Shown one piece after another: positions 6,758 to 62,177 of a DNA stretch of 63,412 nucleotides (its first letter is position 1; the number at the start of each line of letters is the position of its first letter). The translations under genes and the position numbers were made by a program. The notes beneath the pieces are model-generated. The model did not search any database. It saw only the letters and a list, made by a program, of their open reading frames with translations, and had not been told where the DNA came from. Source of the stretch: an uncultured delta proteobacterium (lineage in GTDB: Bacteria; Myxococcota_A; Polyangia; Fen-1088); NCBI GenBank assembly GCA_963737265.1, contig CAVTRY010000009.1:1-63412 (forward strand). Reading direction: 5' to 3'.

Positions 6758-9097
6758 CTAGAACACGACCCCCTGCGGGATCGTGCAGTTCGTTTCGCAG
6801 TGGATCTTGGCGTCCGGGCTGTCCGACGGGTTTCCGCTGCTGTCCAGGGCCACACCGTTGAGCGAACCGAGGTCGCACTCCTCGCCGAGATTGGTGTCCG
6901 CGAAGCCGTCGCCGCAGTAGTGGGTCTTGGTGCAGCCGAGGGTGCAGCCGCCGTTGCCGTTTTGGGTGCCGTTGGCGGGGCCGTTGTCGCATTCTTCCGG
7001 GCCATTGACGATGCCGTCGCCGCAGTAGGTTCCCCACGTGCAATGGGTCGAGCAGCCACCGTAGGCGGTATCGCTGTTCGGACCCGTGCAGCTCGCGGGG
7101 GCCGGCACCGTTCCATCGCCGCAGTCGCACTCCTCGTCGGCCACGGCGACCCCGTCGCCGCAGGTGGGGACGCAACTCGTAGGGGAGGCATTGAAGCCGC
7201 TCAGGGTTAGCTTGTACGACGATCCAGTGGTCTGACGTTCCGCTTGAAACACCGCGATCTCGTAGACCTTGCCGTCCTGTAACCCGAGCGTGGCGGGCTG
7301 AATCGGGGCGGGCACAGGAATGGGATAGGTCTGGGTGATGGTCGTCGTGCCGTTTCCGTTTGCGGCGATGACAATCTTGCCATCGATGGGGGTGTGTAGA
7401 CCGCCGAGATCCACGGCAAGTTTCCGGTTGATGAACACCCACACATCGTCGTCGCCCACGAAGTCGAGGGTGTAGCTCTTGGTCTTGTCATAGGGGAACC
7501 AATAGCGGACTTCGCTGGTGAAGCTGAAGTTGTGCAGACGATCCTTGCCGTTGGCATCCACGTCGTGCGGCCAGCTTGCCGTTGCATCGTAATAGGGTGG
7601 AATCGTAGCAAAGCTGCGTTCAGTAAGAGGCGTGAAGAGATCGTCATCGACAGGGAAGAAGAGTGGGTTGCCGTCTGCTTTGGAGACGATGATCGTGGCA
7701 CTGTAGCCGTTGGGGCCCGTTGTGCACGTGAGCAATGTCCCTCCGGCGGCCACCAAGGTGTCGCATTCGGTTGGGTTCGGATCGATGGACGTGCACGGGA
7801 TGGGATTGCCGGCTGCATCTGTCTTTTCCCGTCCCACGGTGCCGCAGTAATAGGCAATCTTGGTGGTGTTCCACTGGGCGCCGTCGGCTCCGTACCGGTT
7901 GACGTAGTTGCCCTTGCCATCGTTCCAAAGGGTCATTTTGGACGGGGTCGCGTGATTGACGCCTGTTGTGTCTTTGTACCACTCGGCGAACGAGGCGACG
8001 CTGGCCACATGGGCGTTGGCGATACCCGAGTAGACCGGCTTGCCATATGCATCGAGAGTCGCTTGGACCATGCCCGGGAAGGGAGCATAGGATCCTAGTG
8101 CCCCGCTCTCGAAATCCGTGGGATTCTGATATCTGAAGTCGCGATAGATCACCGGGACCTTCATCGTGTTGCCGAGCGGCGGTTGCGTGCAGGTCCAACC
8201 GGGCTCGATCTGGCAGGCACCTGAGCAGCCGTCGCCACCGGCCGCGTTGCCGTCGTCGCACTGCTCGCCGAGTACGATGCCATCACCGCACTGTGAAGTG
8301 CACCCCGACGTTCCCGAGCAGTCGGGTTCGATCTGGCAGTCCTCGGAACAGCCATCGAACGGCACGGTGTTGCCGTCGTCGCAGCCTTCGCCGCCCTCCT
8401 TCTTGCCGTCGCCGCACACCGTGGGCGAGCACTTGCTCGGCGTGCCGCTGCATTTGAAGCCAATTTCGAGTTTGCAGGTAGCCGAACAGCCGTCGCCGCT
8501 CGTGGTGTTGCCGTCGTCGCACGCCTCGGTTCCGCTCACAATTCCGTCCCCACATTTGGGCGTGCACGGCTTGCCGGGAACGCGACATTGGAAACCGGGC
8601 TCGACGGTCTTGCAATCGGCTGAACAGCCATCGCCACTCACGGTATTGCCATCGTCGCAGGTTTCGTTGGAAGTCAGAATGCCGTTGCCACAGACGGCTA
8701 TGTTCTTACAAGGTTGTCCAGGCACAGGACACTCGTAGTTGCTTTCAATCTGGCAGATCTTGCTGCAGCCGTCGCCACTCGTGGTGTTGCCGTCGTCGCA
8801 TTGCTCGGCCCGCTCTCGAATACCGTCGCCGCAGAATCCGCCAGAGGGAAGATCCACGCTGGCATCAGGCGTGGTGATAACGATGCCCCCGCCGAACGAG
8901 CCGCTGTTGCCGGCATTCGCTCCTGAGAAAGCGCCCATGCCACCTGGCCCGCCCGATCCGCCCGCCCCGCTATTGTCGATCGTGGGGTTGGTGCAGCCTG
9001 GGCCTGCAAGCACTGCAATCATGGCCAGACTGACGAGTGCGAAATGGCCTGCTGGAGAACGACCGCCGAAATGGCGTGAAATCCTGATTGTGGTCAT
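6758..9097 (-). CDS. Fibro-slime (PA14-like) domain protein with myxobacterial Cys-rich repeats, probable lipoprotein
   Basis: Repeated CGDG...ExCDDGNxxxGDGCS units; [36 protein letters not shown] fibro-slime motifs; start placed at MTTIRIS. Confidence 0.9.
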
Positions 9098-9226
9098 TGG
9101 GAATTTCCTCGCGGCGCAGAGACGAACACGCGGACCTGTGGGCACATCCTGCTCTAGCTGGGTGGCAGGATGCTAACCTTTTCTTGCATTTTGGCTTGGA
9201 AATGGCGGCAACACTGGCAACGCATC

Positions 9227-52242: not shown

Positions 52243-53625
52243 ATGAATCCAAGAGTCTTTCGCGAGTACGACATCCGAGGTGTGGGTGAGCGGGATTTTC
52301 CCGACGATTTCGTGGCCGAGCTGGGCGACGCCATCGGCGAGCATTTGTATGAGGCGGGCGCTCGCCGCATCACCCTGGCGCGCGACTGCCGCCTGTCCTC
52401 GCCGCGCATTCACCGCGTGATGCGAAGCCGCCTGCTCGCCGCCGGGCTCGACGTGCAGGACATTGGCTTGGTCCACACGCCGGGCCTCTATTTTTCCGTG
52501 TTTCACCTGGAAGCCGACGGCGGCGTCATGATCACGGCCAGTCACAATCCCGAGGAAGACAACGGCTTCAAGGTCATGCGCGGCAAGGGCACCATCTTCG
52601 GCGCGGAAATTCAGGAGCTACGCAAGCGCATCGAGCGTCGTCACGCCGGCACCGAGGCCGCCAAGGTCGCGCCGGGCCAGGCGACCGATGTGGACATCCT
52701 CGCGCCGTACATTGCCCACGTCGTGAAGAACATTCATCCCGGCCCGCGCAAGCTCAAGGTCGTGGTCGACGCCGGCAACGGCATGGGCGGCATTGCTTGC
52801 GTGCCGATTCTGCACAAGCTCGGCTTCCAGGTCGAAGCGCTGTTTTGCGAGCCGGACGGGCGTTTCCCCAACCACCATCCCGATCCCACGGTTCCCGAGA
52901 ACCTGGCTGCTCTCGTTGCGCGTATCAACCAGACCGGCGCCGAGATCGGCATCGCCCTCGACGGCGACGCGGATCGCATCGGCGTGGTCGATCCCGCCGG
53001 ACGCATCGTGTGGGGCGATCAATTGCTGATGCTGTTTGCGAGAGAGATCCTGCGCGAGCGGCCGGGCGCGACCTTCGTCAGCGAGGTCAAGTGCAGCCAG
53101 GTGATGTACGACGACATTGCCGCGCACGGCGGCCGGGCCATCATGTGGAAGGTGGGCCACTCGCTCATCAAGACCAAGATGAAGGAAGAAAAGGCGGTGC
53201 TGGCGGGCGAGATGTCGGGCCACATGTTTTTCGCCGATCGCTATTTCGGCTTCGACGATGCGGTGTATGCCGCGGCTCGCGTGGTCGAGCTGCTGAGCCG
53301 GAGCGACAAGCCGCTGTCGGCCATTGTCGACGCGCTGCCGGTCGTGCACAACACGCCCGAGATTCGCGTCGATTGCTCCGACGACATCAAGTTCGAGGTG
53401 GTGAGGCGTGCCCTCCATCACTATAAGAAGCTCTACTCGGTGGTCGACGTGGACGGCGCGCGCATCAGTTTTGCCGGCGGTTGGGGCCTGGTCCGTGCCT
53501 CGAACACGGGGCCCGTGCTGGTGCTCCGGTGCGAAGCGGAAAGCCCGGCTCGATTGGCCGAGATACGCGCCGACCTCGAGGGCACGCTCTCGAAAATCAA
53601 GACCGACATCAGCGCCGGAAGCTGA
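52243..53625 (+). CDS. Phosphomannomutase/phosphoglucomutase
   Basis: FREYDIRG, TASHNP, DGDADR, GEMSGH, RASNT; ATG 52243. Confidence 0.95.
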   Translation: MNPRVFREYDIRGVGERDFPDDFVAELGDAIGEHLYEAGARRITLARDCRLSSPRIHRVMRSRLLAAGLDVQDIGLVHTPGLYFSVFHLEADGGVMITASHNPEEDNGFKVMRGKGTIFGAEIQELRKRIERRHAGTEAAKVAPGQATDVDILAPYIAHVVKNIHPGPRKLKVVVDAGNGMGGIACVPILHKLGFQVEALFCEPDGRFPNHHPDPTVPENLAALVARINQTGAEIGIALDGDADRIGVVDPAGRIVWGDQLLMLFAREILRERPGATFVSEVKCSQVMYDDIAAHGGRAIMWKVGHSLIKTKMKEEKAVLAGEMSGHMFFADRYFGFDDAVYAAARVVELLSRSDKPLSAIVDALPVVHNTPEIRVDCSDDIKFEVVRRALHHYKKLYSVVDVDGARISFAGGWGLVRASNTGPVLVLRCEAESPARLAEIRADLEGTLSKIKTDISAGS

Positions 53626-53646
53626 TCGCCCGAGCCCGGAGCAGCC

Positions 53647-55140
53647 GTGACTATCGCAGGACCTCGCCACGAACTCTATCACGAGATCTTCGGCTCGATT
53701 CTCGACCGCACCGAGATGACGCCGTACCTGCTTTTGCGATCGGCGACCTACCAGGTGGCGCTTCGGCAGGCAACGCGCATGATGGGCAACCGCGGCTTCG
53801 ACATCGCCGGCGCGGACGACCTGCGCCCGAGCGAAAAGGCGCGCGCGCAGTCCTACATCGAGCAAGTACGGCGGTATGTCCTCGACTTGCTTCTGCCCTT
53901 CTTGAGCAAGCAACTCGCCGAGCTGGCGGCCATGCAGTCAAAGAACTGCCCACTCTACAAAGAGTGTTTGAAAATCATGGGGCGCCTGGAGGCGGTCATC
54001 GCGGATCCCAAGTTCAGCGGTCTCGTGGAGGAAGATCCGCGCCATCTGTTCTTGCTCGCCTCTTCGCGCAAGTACCCCAATCTCTTTCGCGGCTACCGCG
54101 GCCGCGACCTCGTCATCCCGCTCGCGTGGCAGAGGATGGCCTGCGCCATGCTCAAGATGGGCCACCTCATCAAGTCGGTCGAAGAGGACAGCCAGGACAT
54201 CCACGACTATGCCCAGCTTGGTCTTTTCCTAGAAGCGCAGGGCCAAAGCCTCGACGATCTTTATAACTCCAACTGGGATCGGCCCGATCTTCTGCCGGAG
54301 GACGAGCCGGCGCAGCGGGCGTTCGTGAAGATTTCGGCCTTTTTTCACAAGTTGAAGGAGTCGATGACCTTCGACGCAGCGAAGGACTGTCTGGTCTTCA
54401 ACAGCGGGGACGGCGTCGAGGTCGACATCGTGGAGGTCAAGGCACGGCTCAAGAGCCCGGATAGCATGTTCACCAAGCTCGGCAAGAACCTGGAGGGCGA
54501 GGCGCACGACATTCGCGATATTCTCGCCATCACCTTCCTGCTCAGAAGCCGCGAAGACACCCTGACGCTGTTCCATGCGCTGCAAAAACGCGGCGTCATC
54601 TTGCAAGAGAACACCGTCTCGCATTCCATCACGCAGACGCTGTTCGACAGCCCAGACGACATGCTGGAAGCCGTGCGCCGCCTGACGGTCAACCTGGCCC
54701 GCAGCGAGGGCAGCTTGAAGCGACCGTCTGCACGACAGCTACGGGCGCAATCCCAGCAGTTTTTCGACGATCTCAACGTCAACGCGAGGAAAAATCTGGA
54801 TTCCGCATCGGGGCACCGGAAGTTTCAGTGCAAGATCAACTTTGCCCTGCCCATCCATCGCGACGCCGCAACCAATCGGATCCTCATTCCCGGTACCGCC
54901 GCCTACGTGGCACGGAACACGATTCGAACCAAAACGCAGCAACATACGCTGGGTGTCGAGCTGCGCATATCAGACGAACAGAGCTGGCAAGCGTCGGAAT
55001 GGAAAGGTGAATCTCATCACGACGCATACAAGTGCCGGCAGCTGCTTGCGCTCATGAATCGCCTGTTCGGTCCGCTTTTCAAATTTCCCCGCGAAGCCTT
55101 CAGGCAGCTGCGAAAAGACCAGAACCGTCTTTTTGTCTGA
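53647..55140 (+). CDS. Uncharacterised protein with RelA/SpoT synthetase-like motifs, distant relative of 22281-23453
   Basis: RLKSPDSMFTK, RDILAI, VELRISD, GESHHDAYKCRQ; colinear motifs with the TIGR04552-like ORF. Confidence 0.75.
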   Translation: MTIAGPRHELYHEIFGSILDRTEMTPYLLLRSATYQVALRQATRMMGNRGFDIAGADDLRPSEKARAQSYIEQVRRYVLDLLLPFLSKQLAELAAMQSKNCPLYKECLKIMGRLEAVIADPKFSGLVEEDPRHLFLLASSRKYPNLFRGYRGRDLVIPLAWQRMACAMLKMGHLIKSVEEDSQDIHDYAQLGLFLEAQGQSLDDLYNSNWDRPDLLPEDEPAQRAFVKISAFFHKLKESMTFDAAKDCLVFNSGDGVEVDIVEVKARLKSPDSMFTKLGKNLEGEAHDIRDILAITFLLRSREDTLTLFHALQKRGVILQENTVSHSITQTLFDSPDDMLEAVRRLTVNLARSEGSLKRPSARQLRAQSQQFFDDLNVNARKNLDSASGHRKFQCKINFALPIHRDAATNRILIPGTAAYVARNTIRTKTQQHTLGVELRISDEQSWQASEWKGESHHDAYKCRQLLALMNRLFGPLFKFPREAFRQLRKDQNRLFV

Positions 55141-56408: not shown

Positions 56409-56700
56409 AGGCGTTTCCTACACAGCGGAATCGCCAATCGAGCGCTGGTTCCGGCATTTTCACACGTCGGAACCGAAGAAACCGGTCCCGGAAGGCGTTT
56501 CCCCATTGTGGGAACCCCGGATCCCGACCGCGGACGGCGACTCCCACAATGGGAAGGTGGCAATCCCGAGCCCCATCGACGACTTCCCATTGCGGAAGCG
56601 CGAATCGCGACCAGGAAAGCCACATCCCGCAATGGGAAGATGGCGTCCGAGCTCGGAAAATGCGATTCCCACATGTAGGAACCGCATCCCCGGCCGAAAG
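56409..56700. repeat. Degenerate array, 7 units of ~42 bp with palindromic TTCCCA-n3-TGGGAA-like cores
   Basis: GGAA core ends at 56430, 56472, 56514, 56555, 56597, 56638, 56681. Confidence 0.75.
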
Positions 56701-56769
56701 TCGCCCGGTTCGCTTGGGGATTGCCCAAGGTCTTGCCCTTGAGGCCGGGGCAAGCGATGCTTGGCCCAC

Positions 56770-57107
56770 ATGTTGTCCACCCTGGAAATTCGTGGCTTCC
56801 GGACTTTTCGTGACCTCGGCTGGAGGTTGCTTGTTCGTCGACGAAATAGACACCGGGCTCCACTACTCGGTCATGGCGAAGATGTGGCACCTCCTCATCG
56901 AAACCGCGCGACGCCTCGATGTGCAGGTCTTTGCCTCGACCCATAGCCTCGACTGTCTTCAGGCGCTCGCCCGCGTGTGCCAAGAGAAGTCAGAATCTCG
57001 CTGGAGAGGTGGCGGTTCACCGCATCCAGAATGGCCAAGAAACGTCGACGTGCTACACGGCTGCCGAGCTTGCCCCTGCCGTGCGCCACGAGTTGGAGAT
57101 TCGATAG
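56770..57107 (+). pseudogene. Internally deleted, frameshifted ABC-type (AAA_15/AAA_21-like) ATPase
   Basis: MLSTLEIRGFRTFRDL joined out of frame to LFVDEIDTGLHYS...QVFASTHS, then another frame ending ELEIR*; Walker A absent. Confidence 0.8.
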
Positions 57108-57440
57108 GTGCCGCCAGCCAAATCGAGTCCCTTTCGTCTTCTCGTGGAAGGGAGAGACAACCTGCATTCGACCGCGAAACTACTCGAACGCCACGGCCAC
57201 AATTGGAACAACAATGCGCTCGCGCCATTCGTCTACGACTCTGGCGGCATTGATCCTCTCTTCGAGGCGCTGCCGCTGGCTCTCAAATCGTGTGTCCGTG
57301 TCGGCGTGGTCATTGATGCCGATTTGAATCTGACCCGTCGCTGGGCGCGGGCAGAGGCAATTCTGAAGGCGAATGGGATTGCGCCGCCGCCGTCCCTCAG
57401 CCAGCAAGGACTGGTCATTGGTCCCCGTGGTCGGGTTGGG
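57108..57440 (+). pseudogene. Truncated DUF3226-like (Toprim-like) protein
   Basis: LLVEGRDN, GVVIDAD...RRW; similarity stops after RVG and the ORF then reads antisense to the next gene. Confidence 0.7.
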
Positions 57441-57473
57441 AAGGCGCTGCGAAGGCAGCCGCCCCCAGGCTCG

Positions 57474-58079
57474 TCAACTCAGCGTAAACGGATAGCTGAG
57501 AATCTGGCTGGTGCCGGCGGCGGGGAAGCGCAGGCGGCCGAGAACTCCCTTGATGCAGCCGAAGAGGCCGTTGCGCTGCAAGATGGCGGGCGCTTCGACG
57601 CGCACGCCGCGCACGGTGCCGGCGCGCTGGATGCGAAATTTGATGGTCACGCGGCCGGGGACGTAGGTCTCGGGATCGGGCCGCGCGCGGGCGATGCACT
57701 CCAGGATGGCGGACTCCTGGCCGCGAAAGCGTTCGTCGATCTGGTCCTGGCTCAGCTCGGGCAATTCCTTGTCGTTCGACAGGTCGAGACGAAGCACGTC
57801 CGGGGTGGACAGGTCGTCGCCCTGGGCCACCGAGCGCAGATCCGCGGCCGACAAGCGCACCGGCTCGGGCTCGGGCTCGCCGATGGTGTCGGCGGCCGGA
57901 CCGTGCGCAACGCGGATGGCGCCGCGCCCGCGCTTCTTGATTTTCTTGCTGGCCGGCTGCACGCCGGCATCCGCAACGTGCGAGGTGAGCACCCCGACGC
58001 TGGGCCGGTGGTGTTGCCAGTAGAGGTAGGCGCCGAAACCGAGCCCCGCGACGATCAGGCCGAGAATAAAACCCTTCAT
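57474..58079 (-). CDS. Single-TM protein with AgmX/PglI-type (TonB-C-like) C-terminal domain
   Basis: N-terminal TM; ILECI...GRVTIKFRI...GCIKGVLGRLRFP...SYPF. Confidence 0.75.
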   Translation of the reverse strand: MKGFILGLIVAGLGFGAYLYWQHHRPSVGVLTSHVADAGVQPASKKIKKRGRGAIRVAHGPAADTIGEPEPEPVRLSAADLRSVAQGDDLSTPDVLRLDLSNDKELPELSQDQIDERFRGQESAILECIARARPDPETYVPGRVTIKFRIQRAGTVRGVRVEAPAILQRNGLFGCIKGVLGRLRFPAAGTSQILSYPFTLS

Positions 58080-58283
58080 GCCTGGTCGAGCCTACAACAG
58101 AGCTCCGCGCGCATCGAGGTCGCTATCCGCCACGGCCGTCCGGCCCGTTCTTCTGCGCCCATTTCGTCGCATTGCTCTTCAACCAGTTTCTGTCCGAGGT
58201 GGCGGAGTGGCGGGACGGGACCCCCGCGAGGACCTTCCGTTTTCCGCGCGAGAAACTGCTAAAGTGAAGTAGCGAAGAAGCTT

Positions 58284-61200
58284 ATGCCGGGTGAACTCCA
58301 TGCGGGCGACGGAAGGCCTCCACCGTACTCCCTTCGACCTCGCTACTTGTACCCGGCGCTCGTGTTTCTGGTCGTGGCGGTTGCCACGCTGCTGAGACCC
58401 GCGTTGACGGGCGAGGCCATCTTCGACGCCCAATTCGCGGACCGATTTCGCTCCTCAGCGAACCAGGAAAGCGGCAGGCGCGGAGAGAGTTCCGTGGATC
58501 CGGAGGTGGCAATCCTGGCTGGCGCCGCCGCGGCCGACCCTTTGCTCTCCTATCGCAAGTACTACGCTTCCGCACAAAGCGAGGATCTGAACTTGTTCGT
58601 CTGGCCGGACTATCGCTGGGTCCGCGAGAGCATCCGATCGGGTCACCTGCCGCTGTGGCGTTCGGAAATCATGGGTGGCGTGCCGCTACGGTCGGTAAGT
58701 CTATCCAGTCCGTGGTCTCCCCTGTCGTGGCCGGGCTACTTTCTGCCGCTCGTGCGAGGACGTACCGTCGTGATCCTTCTGCATCTCTGGTTGGCAGGAT
58801 TCGCCTTTCATCTTTTCCTGCTCGATCGCGGTCGGCGATGGGTGTCCGCAATCGTGGGCGGCGTGGCTTACATGCTCAACCCCCTCTCGGTGACGTACCT
58901 GGCGTACGGCGACTTCGTTCCCGTATTCGCATTGCTACCTTTGAACTTGATCGTGGTGTCCAGGCTGAATCTGGCCGTGAGACCTTGGCGCAGCGGTGCC
59001 GCGTTGGCGGCGCTGACGGCGCTGCTGTTTCTTTCGGGCGGATCTCTGTATGCCGCATACGCGGTCATGATCCAACTCGGGGCGGCCGTCGCGTTCGCGC
59101 CGCCGTCCTGGCGCGCGCGGGCGCGGGCGGCCGCGATGTGCGCCGTAGCGACCGTCGTCGGTCTTGCCGCCGCTGGAATAGAGCTGCTGCCACTTCTTGA
59201 GACGGCCGCGAACTCGCTACGGACGCCGAATAAGTACGCCGCGACGAACAGCTTGCCCGTCGAAGGACTGCTGACCTGGCTCTTTCCGCATTTTTATGGC
59301 CATCCTGGCCACGGCGATTTCGTCGGCGGCTTTCTATTTTTCCGGCATTTCTCCGGGTTCTACGGTCTGTCGCCGGGTGTAATCGTTCTGGGCCTCGCCG
59401 TCGCAGGGGCGGTCGCTACACGAGCACGCCTTGCGGCGCTGGCGCTTCTTGCGCTTCATGGCTTTCTCCTTCTGCTCGACGCTGGGCCTGCCCACGCGGC
59501 GCTCGCGCATGTGTTTCCGGGTCTCGACCGCTCTCACGTTCTCAGGCTGCTCATTGTTGGGTTCTGTTTGCAGGCTTATCTCGCCGCCCGGGGCGTGGAT
59601 GCCTTGCTGGAAGGTAGGCTTCCCCGCCGTCCGCTGTGGGCGCTCGCTGGACTGATGATCCTGGTGACTGCGGCGATGGATCTCTGGTCGCGCCTGGGCG
59701 GTGGACGCGACCCGTCCCCTCTATGGCTGCACGTGCACTACCTCGCGCGCCTTGGTTCCGTTGTTCTGGCACCGCGTGTGCTGGCGCCTCTCATCCTTAC
59801 CGGTGGCTTGTTAGTGGTCGCCACTTTGGCGGCGCGCCGGCGTCGCCTGTCGCCGTTGGCGGCGGGTGGCCTCGTGGCGTGCGTCGCCATCGAGCTGATC
59901 GTGCTCGCTCGTCCCAGCTTGCCGTCGGCGCCTGCGGCCTCCGTGGCCGGGCCGCCGGACGTGGCCGCGTTGAGAGCGGTGGCGTTGGCGCCGGGTCGGA
60001 TCGTGGGATTGACCGAAGCCGATAGCTTCCCACCGACGCTGGGCGATCATTTCCCTGCCAACACGGCCGCCATGATGGGATTCGAGGATCTTCGTGCGTT
60101 CATGCGGATTCCTCCCGAACCCATGACCGAGCTGTTAGCAACTGCCACGAAATCGGGATTTCTGGAGTTCATGGCATTTCGCGACGTCACCCTGCCGCTG
60201 TTCGATCTGCTTGACGTACGCTACGTGTTGTCGTCCTTGCCCCCTGGTGATGCCGCTCGCTTTCGGCCGCTGGCGCCGGGGATCTGGGAGAACCGCCGCG
60301 CGGTGGGCCGGTCCTTCTTCACTCGCTGTGCCGAGATCGTGCCCGATCCCGAGGCGCGCTTGCTTCGCTTGGTAGCACCTAACTTCGATCCGCTGGCGCG
60401 CGCTATCGTGGAACATTCGGTTCCAGGTTTGCCGCTTTGCGATCGGGATGAGCACGCGTTCGCCGTTCCAATCACCCGGCCCGATTCGGAGCATGTCGAA
60501 ATGTCCGTCGATGCGCCCACGGACGGGGTGGTCGTGTTGTCCGAATCGTACTTCCCCGGATGGCGTGTGGCCGTAGACGGCATCGATCAGGAAGTCCTAC
60601 GCGTAGACCATGCGCTGCGAGGCGTATTGGTTCCAACCGGCATTCATCGGATCGAGTTCAGGTACGTCCCCGGTTCATTCCGCGACGGTGCATTGCTCTC
60701 GCTATTGGCGTGGCTGGCGATCCTGATTGCAGCGTTCGGCCGCCGCCCGCGCCGGATTCCTGCTGACGACGTGTTGATCGCTGGCGGCGCGCTCGTCGTC
60801 TTGCTGGTCTTCGCTGGCGCTGCGTCGATGCCCAACGACAATGACGCTCTGTACGCAGGGGTGATACGCACCCTGAGGGATGGCGGCAGTCCTTTCCTAC
60901 TGCGGATCGGCAACGTTCCATTCCTGGACAAGCCACCCCTGTTCTTCTTCATCGGCGTCTTGCTGACCGCCGTCGCGGGCGAGACCTTGCTGGTGCTGCG
61001 GCTGTTCCCGATCCTCGCTGGCGCGTTGGGAGTCGTGCTGGTGGCGCGCGCGACTCGGCGCCTTTCCGGCTCTCGCGCTGCCGCCACGCTGGCTGGTCTG
61101 TCGCTGTTGGCGGTGCCCAGCTACTACGAGTATGCCCGTCGTATCTACATGGAGGTTCCGGTAGCGGTGCTGGGCTTTTGGGCATTCGATTTGGGTCTGC

Positions 61201-62177
61201 GCGAGCGGTGGAAGCGCTCAGGTGCGGTGGCGGGCCTGGCGTTCATGCTCAAGTCGGTTGTGGGGCTGCTCGGGTTTGCTGCGCTTGGCCTGGCGCACGT
61301 GCTGCACCGTCGAGTGCCACGTGGGCTGGTCGCCGCGGCGTTGTTGGCCATGGCCGTTCTTTTGCCGTGGCACCTGGCCGCGTACTTTGCCGATCCAGCC
61401 ATGTTCCTCGCTTTCACGGTCGATCTGCACTTGAAGCACCAGATCGCCGAGGCACAACCGTGGTCCCGCGGTGGTCCGCTGTTCTATCCAACGGTCCTAT
61501 TTACGCACGATCTCGTCATGGGGATTTTCCTGCTTGCGGGGCTCGCGCTTGGGTTGCGCGCCTGGCTTCAGCAGCGTCGATTCGAGATCGCGGCCTTGCT
61601 GCTGGCCATCGCGATCCAGCTCGTGCTGTACACGGTTTCCGCCACGAAGAAACCGTTCTACCTGCTGACAGCGTATCCCTTCATTGCCGTGCTTGGGGCC
61701 TGGTCGATGGCGCCGTGGCTGGAACGGGAGAAGCGGCGCGTACTGCTGGCCGGGCTCCTGCTCGGCGCCATTTTCGTGCTCTGCTGCGGCCGGTTTGCTC
61801 TTCCCGATCCAGCGGACGAGCAGGGCACGTACATTGCCCCCCTGGCTGCGCGTATGGGCGAACTGTCGGCGCCGGGCGAGAAGCTGTACACGATCGATAC
61901 CTACTTTTCTGCGGCGCAGTTCGCGAGTCATCGCGAAGCGATCTTCGCAGTGCCCTACACCGGTGTGCGCGACATGCTGATGCGGATTCCCTATCTACGC
62001 TATGGCGACAAGGTTGTTGTCTGGGATCCCAAGTTGCTGCGCCAGGGTGCCTGGGTTCTCGCCCCGGCTTCCGTCGCAGTCCAACTGGTCACACGCGAAC
62101 CTGCCACCCGGGTTGTCGCACGCAACGAAGGCTTCTGGCTGCTGCACGGTATGCCGACTGGCCGAGGGGCACCGTGA
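58284..62177 (+). CDS. Fusion of YfhO-family domain and ArnT/PMT-like glycosyltransferase domain
   Basis: G.LPLW...GGVP and LSESYFPGWRVAVDG...VP.G.HRIEFRYVP (YfhO); NDNDALYA, FLDKPPLFF, LRL, LK (ArnT-like). Confidence 0.8.
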   Translation: MPGELHAGDGRPPPYSLRPRYLYPALVFLVVAVATLLRPALTGEAIFDAQFADRFRSSANQESGRRGESSVDPEVAILAGAAAADPLLSYRKYYASAQSEDLNLFVWPDYRWVRESIRSGHLPLWRSEIMGGVPLRSVSLSSPWSPLSWPGYFLPLVRGRTVVILLHLWLAGFAFHLFLLDRGRRWVSAIVGGVAYMLNPLSVTYLAYGDFVPVFALLPLNLIVVSRLNLAVRPWRSGAALAALTALLFLSGGSLYAAYAVMIQLGAAVAFAPPSWRARARAAAMCAVATVVGLAAAGIELLPLLETAANSLRTPNKYAATNSLPVEGLLTWLFPHFYGHPGHGDFVGGFLFFRHFSGFYGLSPGVIVLGLAVAGAVATRARLAALALLALHGFLLLLDAGPAHAALAHVFPGLDRSHVLRLLIVGFCLQAYLAARGVDALLEGRLPRRPLWALAGLMILVTAAMDLWSRLGGGRDPSPLWLHVHYLARLGSVVLAPRVLAPLILTGGLLVVATLAARRRRLSPLAAGGLVACVAIELIVLARPSLPSAPAASVAGPPDVAALRAVALAPGRIVGLTEADSFPPTLGDHFPANTAAMMGFEDLRAFMRIPPEPMTELLATATKSGFLEFMAFRDVTLPLFDLLDVRYVLSSLPPGDAARFRPLAPGIWENRRAVGRSFFTRCAEIVPDPEARLLRLVAPNFDPLARAIVEHSVPGLPLCDRDEHAFAVPITRPDSEHVEMSVDAPTDGVVVLSESYFPGWRVAVDGIDQEVLRVDHALRGVLVPTGIHRIEFRYVPGSFRDGALLSLLAWLAILIAAFGRRPRRIPADDVLIAGGALVVLLVFAGAASMPNDNDALYAGVIRTLRDGGSPFLLRIGNVPFLDKPPLFFFIGVLLTAVAGETLLVLRLFPILAGALGVVLVARATRRLSGSRAAATLAGLSLLAVPSYYEYARRIYMEVPVAVLGFWAFDLGLRERWKRSGAVAGLAFMLKSVVGLLGFAALGLAHVLHRRVPRGLVAAALLAMAVLLPWHLAAYFADPAMFLAFTVDLHLKHQIAEAQPWSRGGPLFYPTVLFTHDLVMGIFLLAGLALGLRAWLQQRRFEIAALLLAIAIQLVLYTVSATKKPFYLLTAYPFIAVLGAWSMAPWLEREKRRVLLAGLLLGAIFVLCCGRFALPDPADEQGTYIAPLAARMGELSAPGEKLYTIDTYFSAAQFASHREAIFAVPYTGVRDMLMRIPYLRYGDKVVVWDPKLLRQGAWVLAPASVAVQLVTREPATRVVARNEGFWLLHGMPTGRGAP

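Follow-up and report, generated by a model that had tools for sequence, protein, structure and literature searches.

RelA/SpoT-type enzymes set central starvation signals in bacteria, and the stand-alone synthetases among them are, to our knowledge, either housekeeping makers of (p)ppGpp or toxins. In the structures of RelQ, RelP and RelSeq, an arginine clamps or stacks on the adenine of the donor, a tyrosine stacks on the base of the acceptor, and a glutamate and an aspartate hold Mg2+; the motifs RxKxxxSxxxK and HxxYK are specific to the synthetases of the RelA/SpoT homologues (RSH) rather than to nucleotidyltransferases. The gene considered here encodes a 497-residue protein and lies towards the end of a 63,412-nucleotide stretch of DNA from an uncultured delta proteobacterium (contig CAVTRY010000009.1 of assembly GCA_963737265.1; Myxococcota_A, Polyangia, Fen-1088), which is referred to below as the window. 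The original prediction, made from the letters of this sequence, had described the protein as a stand-alone RSH-like synthetase of an uncharacterised subfamily, encoded directly after manC and a phosphomannomutase (PMM) gene and linked in function to the GDP-mannose synthesis of that pair. The explanation that we find best, and to which we give somewhat more credence than doubt, is that the protein is a stand-alone, two-domain nucleotide pyrophosphokinase of the RSH synthetase (SYNTH) type with an altered substrate pocket, encoded by an acquired gene and possibly tied to nitrogen status. The fold, the subfamily and the changed substrate contacts of the original prediction are thus retained, and the link to GDP-mannose is not.

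By structure, the nearest described systems are RelQ (SAS1) and RelP (SAS2) of the Firmicutes (5ded, 5dec, 6fgk and 6ewz), which gave the best matches to residues ~180-497 of the protein (Z 7.6-8.2, 151-173 residues aligned). The likeness extends to the order of RxKxxxSxxxK, Asp strand, Glu strand and HxxYK and to the stand-alone layout, no HD, TGS or ACT domain having been detected in the protein. Unlike RelQ and RelP, with which it shares ~15% identity, the 497-residue protein stays below the Pfam threshold, carries an added helical N-terminal domain (N-domain) of 215 residues and an insertion of 74 residues, and has threonine, histidine and arginine in place of the canonical arginine, tyrosine and glutamine. 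The SYNTH domains of the long RSH enzymes Rel, RelA and SpoT (RelSeq, 1vj7; B. subtilis Rel, 6yxa) also align with it, both by motif and by structure (Z 6.5-7.6); unlike the long enzymes, it contains no HD, TGS or ACT domain that Pfam could find at E<=10, as the original prediction had read, and no entry of the HD fold stood among the listed structural matches of its N-domain. A canonical long RSH is encoded separately in the same genome, on contig 11. In its working, the 497-residue protein is most likely closest to RelQ and RelP, judged from sequence and model, and yet it falls outside the Pfam and NCBIfam criteria and lacks three of the canonical residue features.

The case for a SYNTH domain in the C-terminal half is made from structure and from profiles. 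The four motifs first noticed in the protein, RLKSPDSMFTK, RDILAI (residues 290-295), VELRISD and HHDAYK, do occur in that order (Table 1), and their blocks align with those of Rel and of the TIGR04552 proteins described below. When the protein was shuffled 200,000 times with its composition preserved, RxKxxxSxxxK arose 1,542 times and had HxxYK after it in 19 cases, a rarity that places the pair beyond chance. An AlphaFold2 model built from 15 sequences (pLDDT 85.4, pTM 0.81) is helical towards the N-terminus and alpha/beta in its C-terminal part; in the latter, the RxK strand, the SxxxK helix, the Asp strand, a group of helices, the long GHRKFQ and VELRISD strands and the HHDAYK helix follow one another in the model, an order of elements and motifs that agrees with the SYNTH fold, and the modelled chain ends ~20 residues beyond that fold. 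The structure comparison that had been proposed with the original prediction came out in its favour: the top Foldseek rows were all small alarmone synthetases (probability 0.98-1.00), and after re-alignment the first 22 entries of that list were all RSH synthetases (RelQ, RelP, Rel, RelA and SpoT; Z 6.5-8.2), headed by 5ded_G (Z 8.2, root-mean-square deviation 3.6, 151 residues aligned), with CapRel at Z 5.9 and FaRel2 at Z 4.5. A wide search of 48,161 representative chains, which is independent of Foldseek, returned the same top six; RelP and RelQ again led (6fgk_A, Z 7.9, deviation 4.0, 163 aligned; 5dec_A, Z 7.8; 6ewz_A, Z 7.6), followed by Rel, SpoT and RelA and, below these, by transferases of the Pol-beta type with Z<=6.1.

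At the level of profiles, the sole Pfam match of the protein at E<=10 was RelA_SpoT (PF04607; E 0.0037, 18 bits), in which residues 267-317 fall on positions 2-51 of 113, and homologues from four of five other genomes gave sub-threshold matches to the same profile (E 1.4e-4 to 1.9e-3). A bridge to Rel is offered by TIGR04552. The C-terminal domain, aligned by hhalign with 13 TIGR04552 proteins, gave a probability of 94.4 and E 9.1e-8 over 188 columns; TIGR04552 in turn aligned with eight Rel-type SYNTH domains (E 9.1e-4), and the five motif blocks all fell into register. Moreover, each of the 13 TIGR04552 proteins matched PF04607 at E<=0.14, and one of them (L103) did so above the gathering score (31.8 vs 27 bits, profile 4-112 of 113). 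Along this bridge, the RDILAITF strand corresponds to YDKLRFR of TIGR04552, and VELRISD to TEFQIVD of TIGR04552 and EVQIRT of Rel; the region of the insertion (~315-388) is gapped with respect to Rel in the TIGR04552-Rel alignment. The ESM Atlas neighbours of the protein belong to clusters of Spirochaetota, Myxococcota and Bdellovibrionota, and PF04607 is found on 23% of the members of the Bdellovibrionota cluster. On the ranking of the structures and the TIGR04552 bridge together, the C-terminal half is judged to be a genuine, very divergent SYNTH domain.

Several results weigh against this assignment. The Foldseek E-values for the RSH matches are weak (~0.01), and a structural Z of ~8 is the stated limit of reliability of the tool; given such borderline values, the fold call leans on how the entries rank, how much of the domain they cover and how the motifs line up. 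The Pfam match falls short of the gathering score of PF04607 (18 against 27 bits). The direct hhalign comparison with the eight Rel-type SYNTH domains covered the first two motifs only (43 columns, E 0.0055, probability 6.7), RLKSPDSMFTK being paired with RAKGYWSIYQK, as found in the long Rel of this genome, and the Asp strand with DIIAFRI, and searches of PDB sequences by the single protein or by a 15-sequence profile did not find RSH.

What the domain might do can be read from its conserved positions. All counts of conservation, neighbours and upstream sites given here are over 80 homologues or the 80 related loci, with neighbours taken within a radius of 7 kb. R267, K269, S273, K277, D291, E438, H458 and Y461 are invariant in all 80 homologues, as are K392 and Q394 of the GHRKFQCKI strand, and position 462 is lysine in 72 of them and arginine in the other 8. 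Tested feature by feature, RxKxxxSxxxK and HxxYK are present, the arginine of DxxxxR and the acceptor-stacking tyrosine are absent, and the ExQxRT strand retains its catalytic glutamate (E438) with the glutamine swapped for R440. The original prediction had pointed out the loss of the arginine and the glutamine, now placed at Thr296 and Arg440; to these is added His390 for the tyrosine, in a register inferred by passing from the 497-residue protein to TIGR04552 (SYRVVNF) and thence to Rel (YQSLH). Each of the three replacements is fixed in 80/80 homologues, and the TIGR04552 proteins retain the canonical arginine, tyrosine and glutamine at the same three positions. A phosphate/Mg site that is kept, next to a substrate pocket that was changed jointly and then frozen, suggests not a decaying enzyme but one that is probably active and has changed its specificity for the donor or the acceptor.

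The most likely scheme would be that an NTP and Mg2+ are bound via R267, K269, S273, K277, D291 and E438, as in RelQ and RelP, and that the beta,gamma-pyrophosphate would then be moved to the 3'-OH of a nucleotide acceptor. Because three substrate-contact positions (Thr296, His390 and Arg440) are fixed to non-canonical residues, the donor and/or the acceptor, and thus the product, may differ from those of (p)ppGpp synthesis, so that a product other than (p)ppGpp is possible. The N-domain would probably be the regulatory or sensor part of the enzyme.

The same three positions also tell against an enzyme of this kind, since their change could mean another chemistry or mere binding. In that case, the RSH-like fold would serve a different function, either that of a non-catalytic nucleotide-binding regulator or that of another transferase, for example one engaged in nucleotidyl transfer, like other enzymes of the Pol-beta fold, or in the modification of a protein or small molecule. 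The 74-residue insertion within the fold is in keeping with this idea, and so is the common core seen in the structures that rank next, those of Pol beta, Pol mu, TdT, OAS and the CD-NTases (Z 5-6.3). However, the RSH-type phosphate/Mg residues, including those of RxKxxxSxxxK and HxxYK, are invariant throughout the family, and the RSH entries outrank every other entry of the Pol-beta fold; a change of function therefore seems doubtful to us, and the divergent pyrophosphokinase is preferred.

The relatives of this pyrophosphokinase candidate form a narrow family. A word-indexed protein search returned 679 homologues, the best 120 of which are 65-93% identical to it, measure 474-554 residues and come mostly from Nitrospirota and Thermodesulfovibrionales; none of these 120 bears a precomputed Pfam domain, and many are labelled 'TIGR04562 family' by JGI. 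In a library of representatives at 50% identity, 73 sequences matched, of which the (nearly) full-length ones are 62%, 35% and 29% identical; so few representatives and so high an identity indicate a family that is narrow and tightly conserved. Across phyla, its members are 52-93% identical and mostly single-copy. One homologue (P0149) tried as a bridge to more distant relatives proved to be a singleton.

Proteins of TIGR04552 and TIGR04562, from Myxococcota, Bdellovibrionota and Spirochaetota, are homologous to the 497-residue protein over the SYNTH-like domain and part of the N-domain. It scores 64.1 bits against TIGR04562 (cut-off 140) and 62.1 bits against TIGR04552 (cut-off 125), matches that run over profile positions ~131-356 and the last ~225 residues, and four homologues (P0127, P0149, P0122 and P0052) likewise lie below these cut-offs. 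Unlike the TIGR04552 proteins, whose motifs read SRKxxDSLITK, YDKLRFR, SYRVVNF, TEFQIVD and SHERYK and keep the canonical arginine, tyrosine and glutamine, it is ~100 residues longer and imported. TIGR04552 is near-universal and vertically inherited in the class of the window (35/41 genomes), where a native paralogue lies 31 kb upstream of the gene (Table 1). On sequence comparison, the 497-residue family is an unnamed sister group of TIGR04552 and TIGR04562.

This family and its two sisters fall below the usual domain-model thresholds. The main text of the 2011 RSH survey (PMC3153485), in the parts available to us, lists Nitrospirae with Rel only, recognises a group named 'bdRel' in the beta- and deltaproteobacteria, and does not mention Myxococcus or Bdellovibrio; the accessible main text of the 2020 survey (PMC7229694) mentions none of Nitrospirae, Myxococcus, Bdellovibrio and Leptospira. 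The 'bdRel' group could overlap with the TIGR04552/TIGR04562 sister families, as far as the parts of the survey that we consulted allow. For MXAN_4858, a mild effect on developmental fitness is reported in a bioRxiv preprint, available to us in part, which touches on TIGR04552 in passing; our literature searches found no functional study of MXAN_4858 and none that links an alarmone synthetase or ppGpp with nitrogenase and P-II.

The N-domain, modelled alone, reached a pLDDT of 78.5, and over residues 31-215 the homologues show no variation in 33 of 185 columns. Residues 130-178 (DPRHLFLLASS...ACAMLKMGH) align by hhalign with positions 109-140 of TIGR04552 (E 1.7e-4), and this part of the N-domain is therefore common to the superfamily. 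The idea that the N-domain may be a degenerate HD (pseudo-hydrolase) domain, as in RelA, drew no support from its listed structural matches, which include no HD entry; Foldseek gave no match for its model, and no known fold clearly fits it. Its best fold matches are to the helical subdomain of Enzyme I of the phosphotransferase system (PTS) and of EI-Ntr (Z 7.4, 6.8 and 6.3, values below what is reliable for helical folds). These matches raised the idea of an HPr- or NPr-binding domain, which was dropped because a PTS-HPr is present in the window's genome but in none of four other carrier genomes, and because the Z-scores are too low.

The gene was acquired by transfer. Within the window's genus, 9 of the 12 other genomes carry it, against 0 of the 48 others from its family and class, and its GC content (0.56-0.60) is lower than that of its flanks (0.64-0.68). 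A sample of 201 Nitrospirota genomes contained it in 27, for the most part as a single intact copy. In a tree quickly built by maximum likelihood (IQ-TREE, 81 sequences), the window's clade (8 rows, SH-aLRT 100) is nested within Nitrospirota rows, and so is a clade of Methylococcales/Gammaproteobacteria (6 rows, SH-aLRT 97). By these comparisons, the gene is patchy in Nitrospirota and was transferred from there to the window's Myxococcota-like genus and to Methylococcales-like Gammaproteobacteria. A joint transfer with nif genes was considered as well; the NifH, NifD and NifK proteins of the window's genome are 79%, 65% and 55% identical to those of a Nitrospirota locus (L013), which is too distant to argue for it.

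The involvement of nitrogen is suggested by the neighbours and by the carriers. When the 879 open reading frames (ORFs) of the 80 loci were clustered and the cluster representatives named by Pfam, no neighbour family was common to the loci generally; the largest clusters, those of sigma-54 activators (in 19 loci) and of P-II (in 9), vary in their distance from the gene and in strand. An ammonium transporter gene (amt) is found in 7 loci, nifD/K in 4 and nifH in 1, and at least one of P-II, amt, nifD/K or nifH in 12/80. Five carrier genomes contain 3-7 P-II copies per ~3 Mb, from which some 1.5 loci would be expected by chance to have P-II within the radius, against the 9 observed. In L051, a GlnK-type P-II gene ends 57 nt upstream of the homologue on the same strand, and in five further loci the immediate neighbour is a glutamate dehydrogenase gene (L056 and L060), ureF (L074) or a gene for a nitrate-reductase-like molybdoenzyme (L066 and L067).

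Among the Nitrospirota, 20/27 carriers and 54/174 non-carriers are NifH-positive, on the assumption that the carrier and NifH counts, made with the same settings on overlapping genomes, refer to the same 201 genomes. NifH was likewise detected in 8 of the 10 carriers of the window's genus and in 4 of the 5 gammaproteobacterial carriers, which brings the NifH-positive carriers to 32 of 42, spread over three phyla. Within the window's genus, all eight NifH-positive genomes carry the gene, and the three genomes without the gene are also without NifH; in the other genera of its family, both the gene and NifH are absent (0/24 genomes each). The window's own genome has a cluster of the nifHDK(EN) type on contig 12 (231000-249000, L104), which is not the contig of the gene. 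Since most carriers are diazotrophs and P-II, amt or nif genes are often close by, a signal tied to nitrogen status would be more likely than one tied to GDP-mannose synthesis, and we regard the nitrogen link as likely but unproven. As an observation apart, the only members of the window's family in which NifH (E~1e-131) was found belong to its genus (7 of the 12 other genomes), a restriction that NifH shares with the RSH-like gene.

Other results speak against such a link, and so against this part of the preferred explanation. No nitrogen gene stands beside the homologue in 63 of the 80 loci, and none is near the 497-residue gene in the window; a NifH match is absent from 10 of the 42 carriers, and the co-occurrence counts ignore the kinship of the genomes. 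A sigma-54-type -24/-12 pattern is found upstream in 2 of the 80 loci under strict criteria and in 10 under loose ones (~4 expected), which points to heterogeneous regulation. As regards the chemistry, searches of the literature by the accession names TIGR04552 and TIGR04562 brought up no functional study, and passing mentions of TIGR04552 only, in the portions of the sources that could be consulted.

A more specific form of the pyrophosphokinase reading, which we think unlikely, is that of a dedicated nitrogen-status alarmone synthetase, the product of which would not be (p)ppGpp, the pocket of which would have been rebuilt on Thr296, His390 and Arg440, and the N-domain of which would read P-II/2-oxoglutarate or some other nitrogen cue; it would owe its spread by transfer among diazotrophs, in three phyla or more, to its ability to connect with that conserved signal. 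In the broader form, an intact phosphate/Mg site, a rebuilt pocket and the recurrence of genes for nitrogen fixation and ammonium uptake make the family a candidate source of a new nucleotide signal, one that would act in the anaerobic diazotrophs that live in peat, soil and groundwater.

From the upstream sequences, lineages seem to differ in how the family is regulated. A TACA-N4-TGTA dyad occurs in 1 of the 80 upstream regions, and TGT-N10-ACA in 15 (~4 expected). Four loci, L029, L034, L061 (at ~-140 and -108) and L074 (at -168 and -135), have paired 16-bp palindromes, TGTCCC-N4-GGGACA, spaced by ~31 nt ahead of the homologue; next comes an extended -10 box of the sigma-70 type, similar to TGATATAAT. 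L055 and L064 have instead a sigma-54-like TGGCAnGnTTTTCGCT at -82 and -76. Eight loci (L021, L023, L033, L042, L050, L063, L064 and L073) contain a family of unannotated proteins of 230-290 residues, encoded in several of them directly upstream of amt-glnK (e.g., L063:10100-10963); its Pfam matches are weak and porin-like (OmpA_membrane, BBP2 and Gcw_chp, E 3.5e-4 to 3.5e-3), and it may be an outer-membrane channel of the ammonium-uptake cluster.

Another possible role is that of a toxin among the small alarmone synthetases or of an effector against phages, that is, a tRNA 3'-CCA pyrophosphokinase or a (pp)pApp synthetase like FaRel2, CapRel and Tas1, with the N-domain as a fused antitoxin or sensor. 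CapRel (7ztb) and FaRel2 (8pu4) share the RSH synthetase fold with the 497-residue protein, and its layout of two fused domains resembles that of CapRel, in which a regulatory domain stands in the same chain. A patchy distribution with transfer across phyla, a variable gene neighbourhood in which PIN-domain genes adjoin in 5 loci, and the pI of 9.5 of the C-terminal domain in this copy would also suit such a toxin. However, the pI spans 5.2 to 9.4 in the family, the extra domain of the 497-residue protein is N-terminal, unlike that of CapRel, and both CapRel and FaRel2 match its structure less well than RelQ and RelP do. Moreover, no bicistronic partner is conserved across the 80 loci, PADLOC gave no match for the protein, tblastn found none in 72,556 plasmid and 50,697 phage records, and the high identity of these single-copy genes across phyla is unlike that of fast-evolving defence genes. 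A role in defence or toxicity is consequently very improbable in our view, and the nitrogen-associated pyrophosphokinase remains the reading that we prefer.

There remains the position of this pyrophosphokinase gene after manC and PMM. The PMM ORF ends at 53625, which leaves a gap of 21 nt between two genes of one strand, exactly as first described, and no terminator-like or promoter-like site was found in the gap, so co-transcription with PMM is plausible in this genome. In the survey of neighbourhoods that had been proposed with the original prediction, manC was found in 5/80 loci (L002-L005 and L009), PMM in 3/80 and the downstream OYE-type reductase in 6/80; all of these loci belong to the window's clade or genus, and the remaining 75 have neither manC nor PMM. 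No PMM lies between manC and the gene in L003 and L009, and in L004 PMM is separated from the gene by 4.3 kb. The adjacency is thus limited to one genus, where it marks a genus-specific insertion site, and the position after manC-PMM looks like an accident of that site. An enzyme with a functional tie to GDP-mannose synthesis, such as a sensor or consumer of GTP within a manC-PMM operon, can hardly be what the gene encodes, for although the short gap, the synteny of manC, the gene and the OYE-type reductase in five genus-level loci, and a large gene for a YfhO/PMT-type glycosyltransferase 3 kb downstream would suit it, these genus-bound associations are set against a recent import of the gene from Nitrospirota, where its neighbours differ. 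The case illustrates how adjacency in one genome can mislead on function.

Table 1. Positions in the window of the gene, its signals and domains, and other features
Feature	Position	Strand	Basis
Whole gene, 497-aa divergent RelA/SpoT-synthetase-like protein (P0001)	53647..55140	+	ORF and translation, GTG start
Ribosome-binding site GGAG, 5 nt ahead of GTG	53638..53641	+	Read from sequence
N-terminal all-helical domain, residues 1-215, family-specific; residues 130-178 common to TIGR04552 proteins	53647..54291	+	Domain-only model
RelA/SpoT-synthetase-like (SYNTH) domain, residues ~216-475	54292..55071	+	Structural matches, Pfam, hhalign
RLKSPDSMFTK = RxKxxxSxxxK (R267, K269, S273, K277), residues 267-277	54445..54477	+	Motif
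RDILAITF strand, residues 290-297; D291 at catalytic Asp position, T296 in place of canonical Arg	54514..54537	+	
Family-specific insertion, residues ~315-388, two helices, within SYNTH fold	54589..54810	+	Model secondary structure
GHRKFQCKI strand; H390 at acceptor-stacking Tyr position	54811..54837	+	Register via two alignments
VELRISD = ExQxRT block, residues 437-443; E438 kept, Q replaced by R440	54955..54975	+	
HHDAYK = HxxYK, residues 457-462	55015..55032	+	
Native TIGR04552 paralogue, 390 aa	22281-23453	+	330 bits vs cut-off 125
Candidate two-gene defence pair, AAA ATPase and DUF3226	56549-58262	+	
1297-aa membrane protein	58284-62177	+	YfhO and PMT_2 domains
795-aa protein	6758-9145	-	Many DUF4215 cysteine-rich repeats

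Three further features of the window may be mentioned. The cysteine-rich repeat protein of the minus strand (Table 1) agrees with the Myxococcota-like labels that the nearest public genomes bear. The 1297-residue membrane protein, whose PMT_2 domain is of the dolichyl-phosphate-mannose-type glycosyltransferase kind, may form with manC-PMM a mannosylation locus that received the RSH-like gene. In the candidate defence pair, the ORF of the AAA ATPase matches PDC-M38A/AbiLi of PADLOC over the last ~60 profile residues only and may be truncated or frameshifted, and the DUF3226 protein matches PDC-M38B; in the loci of the genus, the DUF3226 gene keeps its place downstream of OYE.

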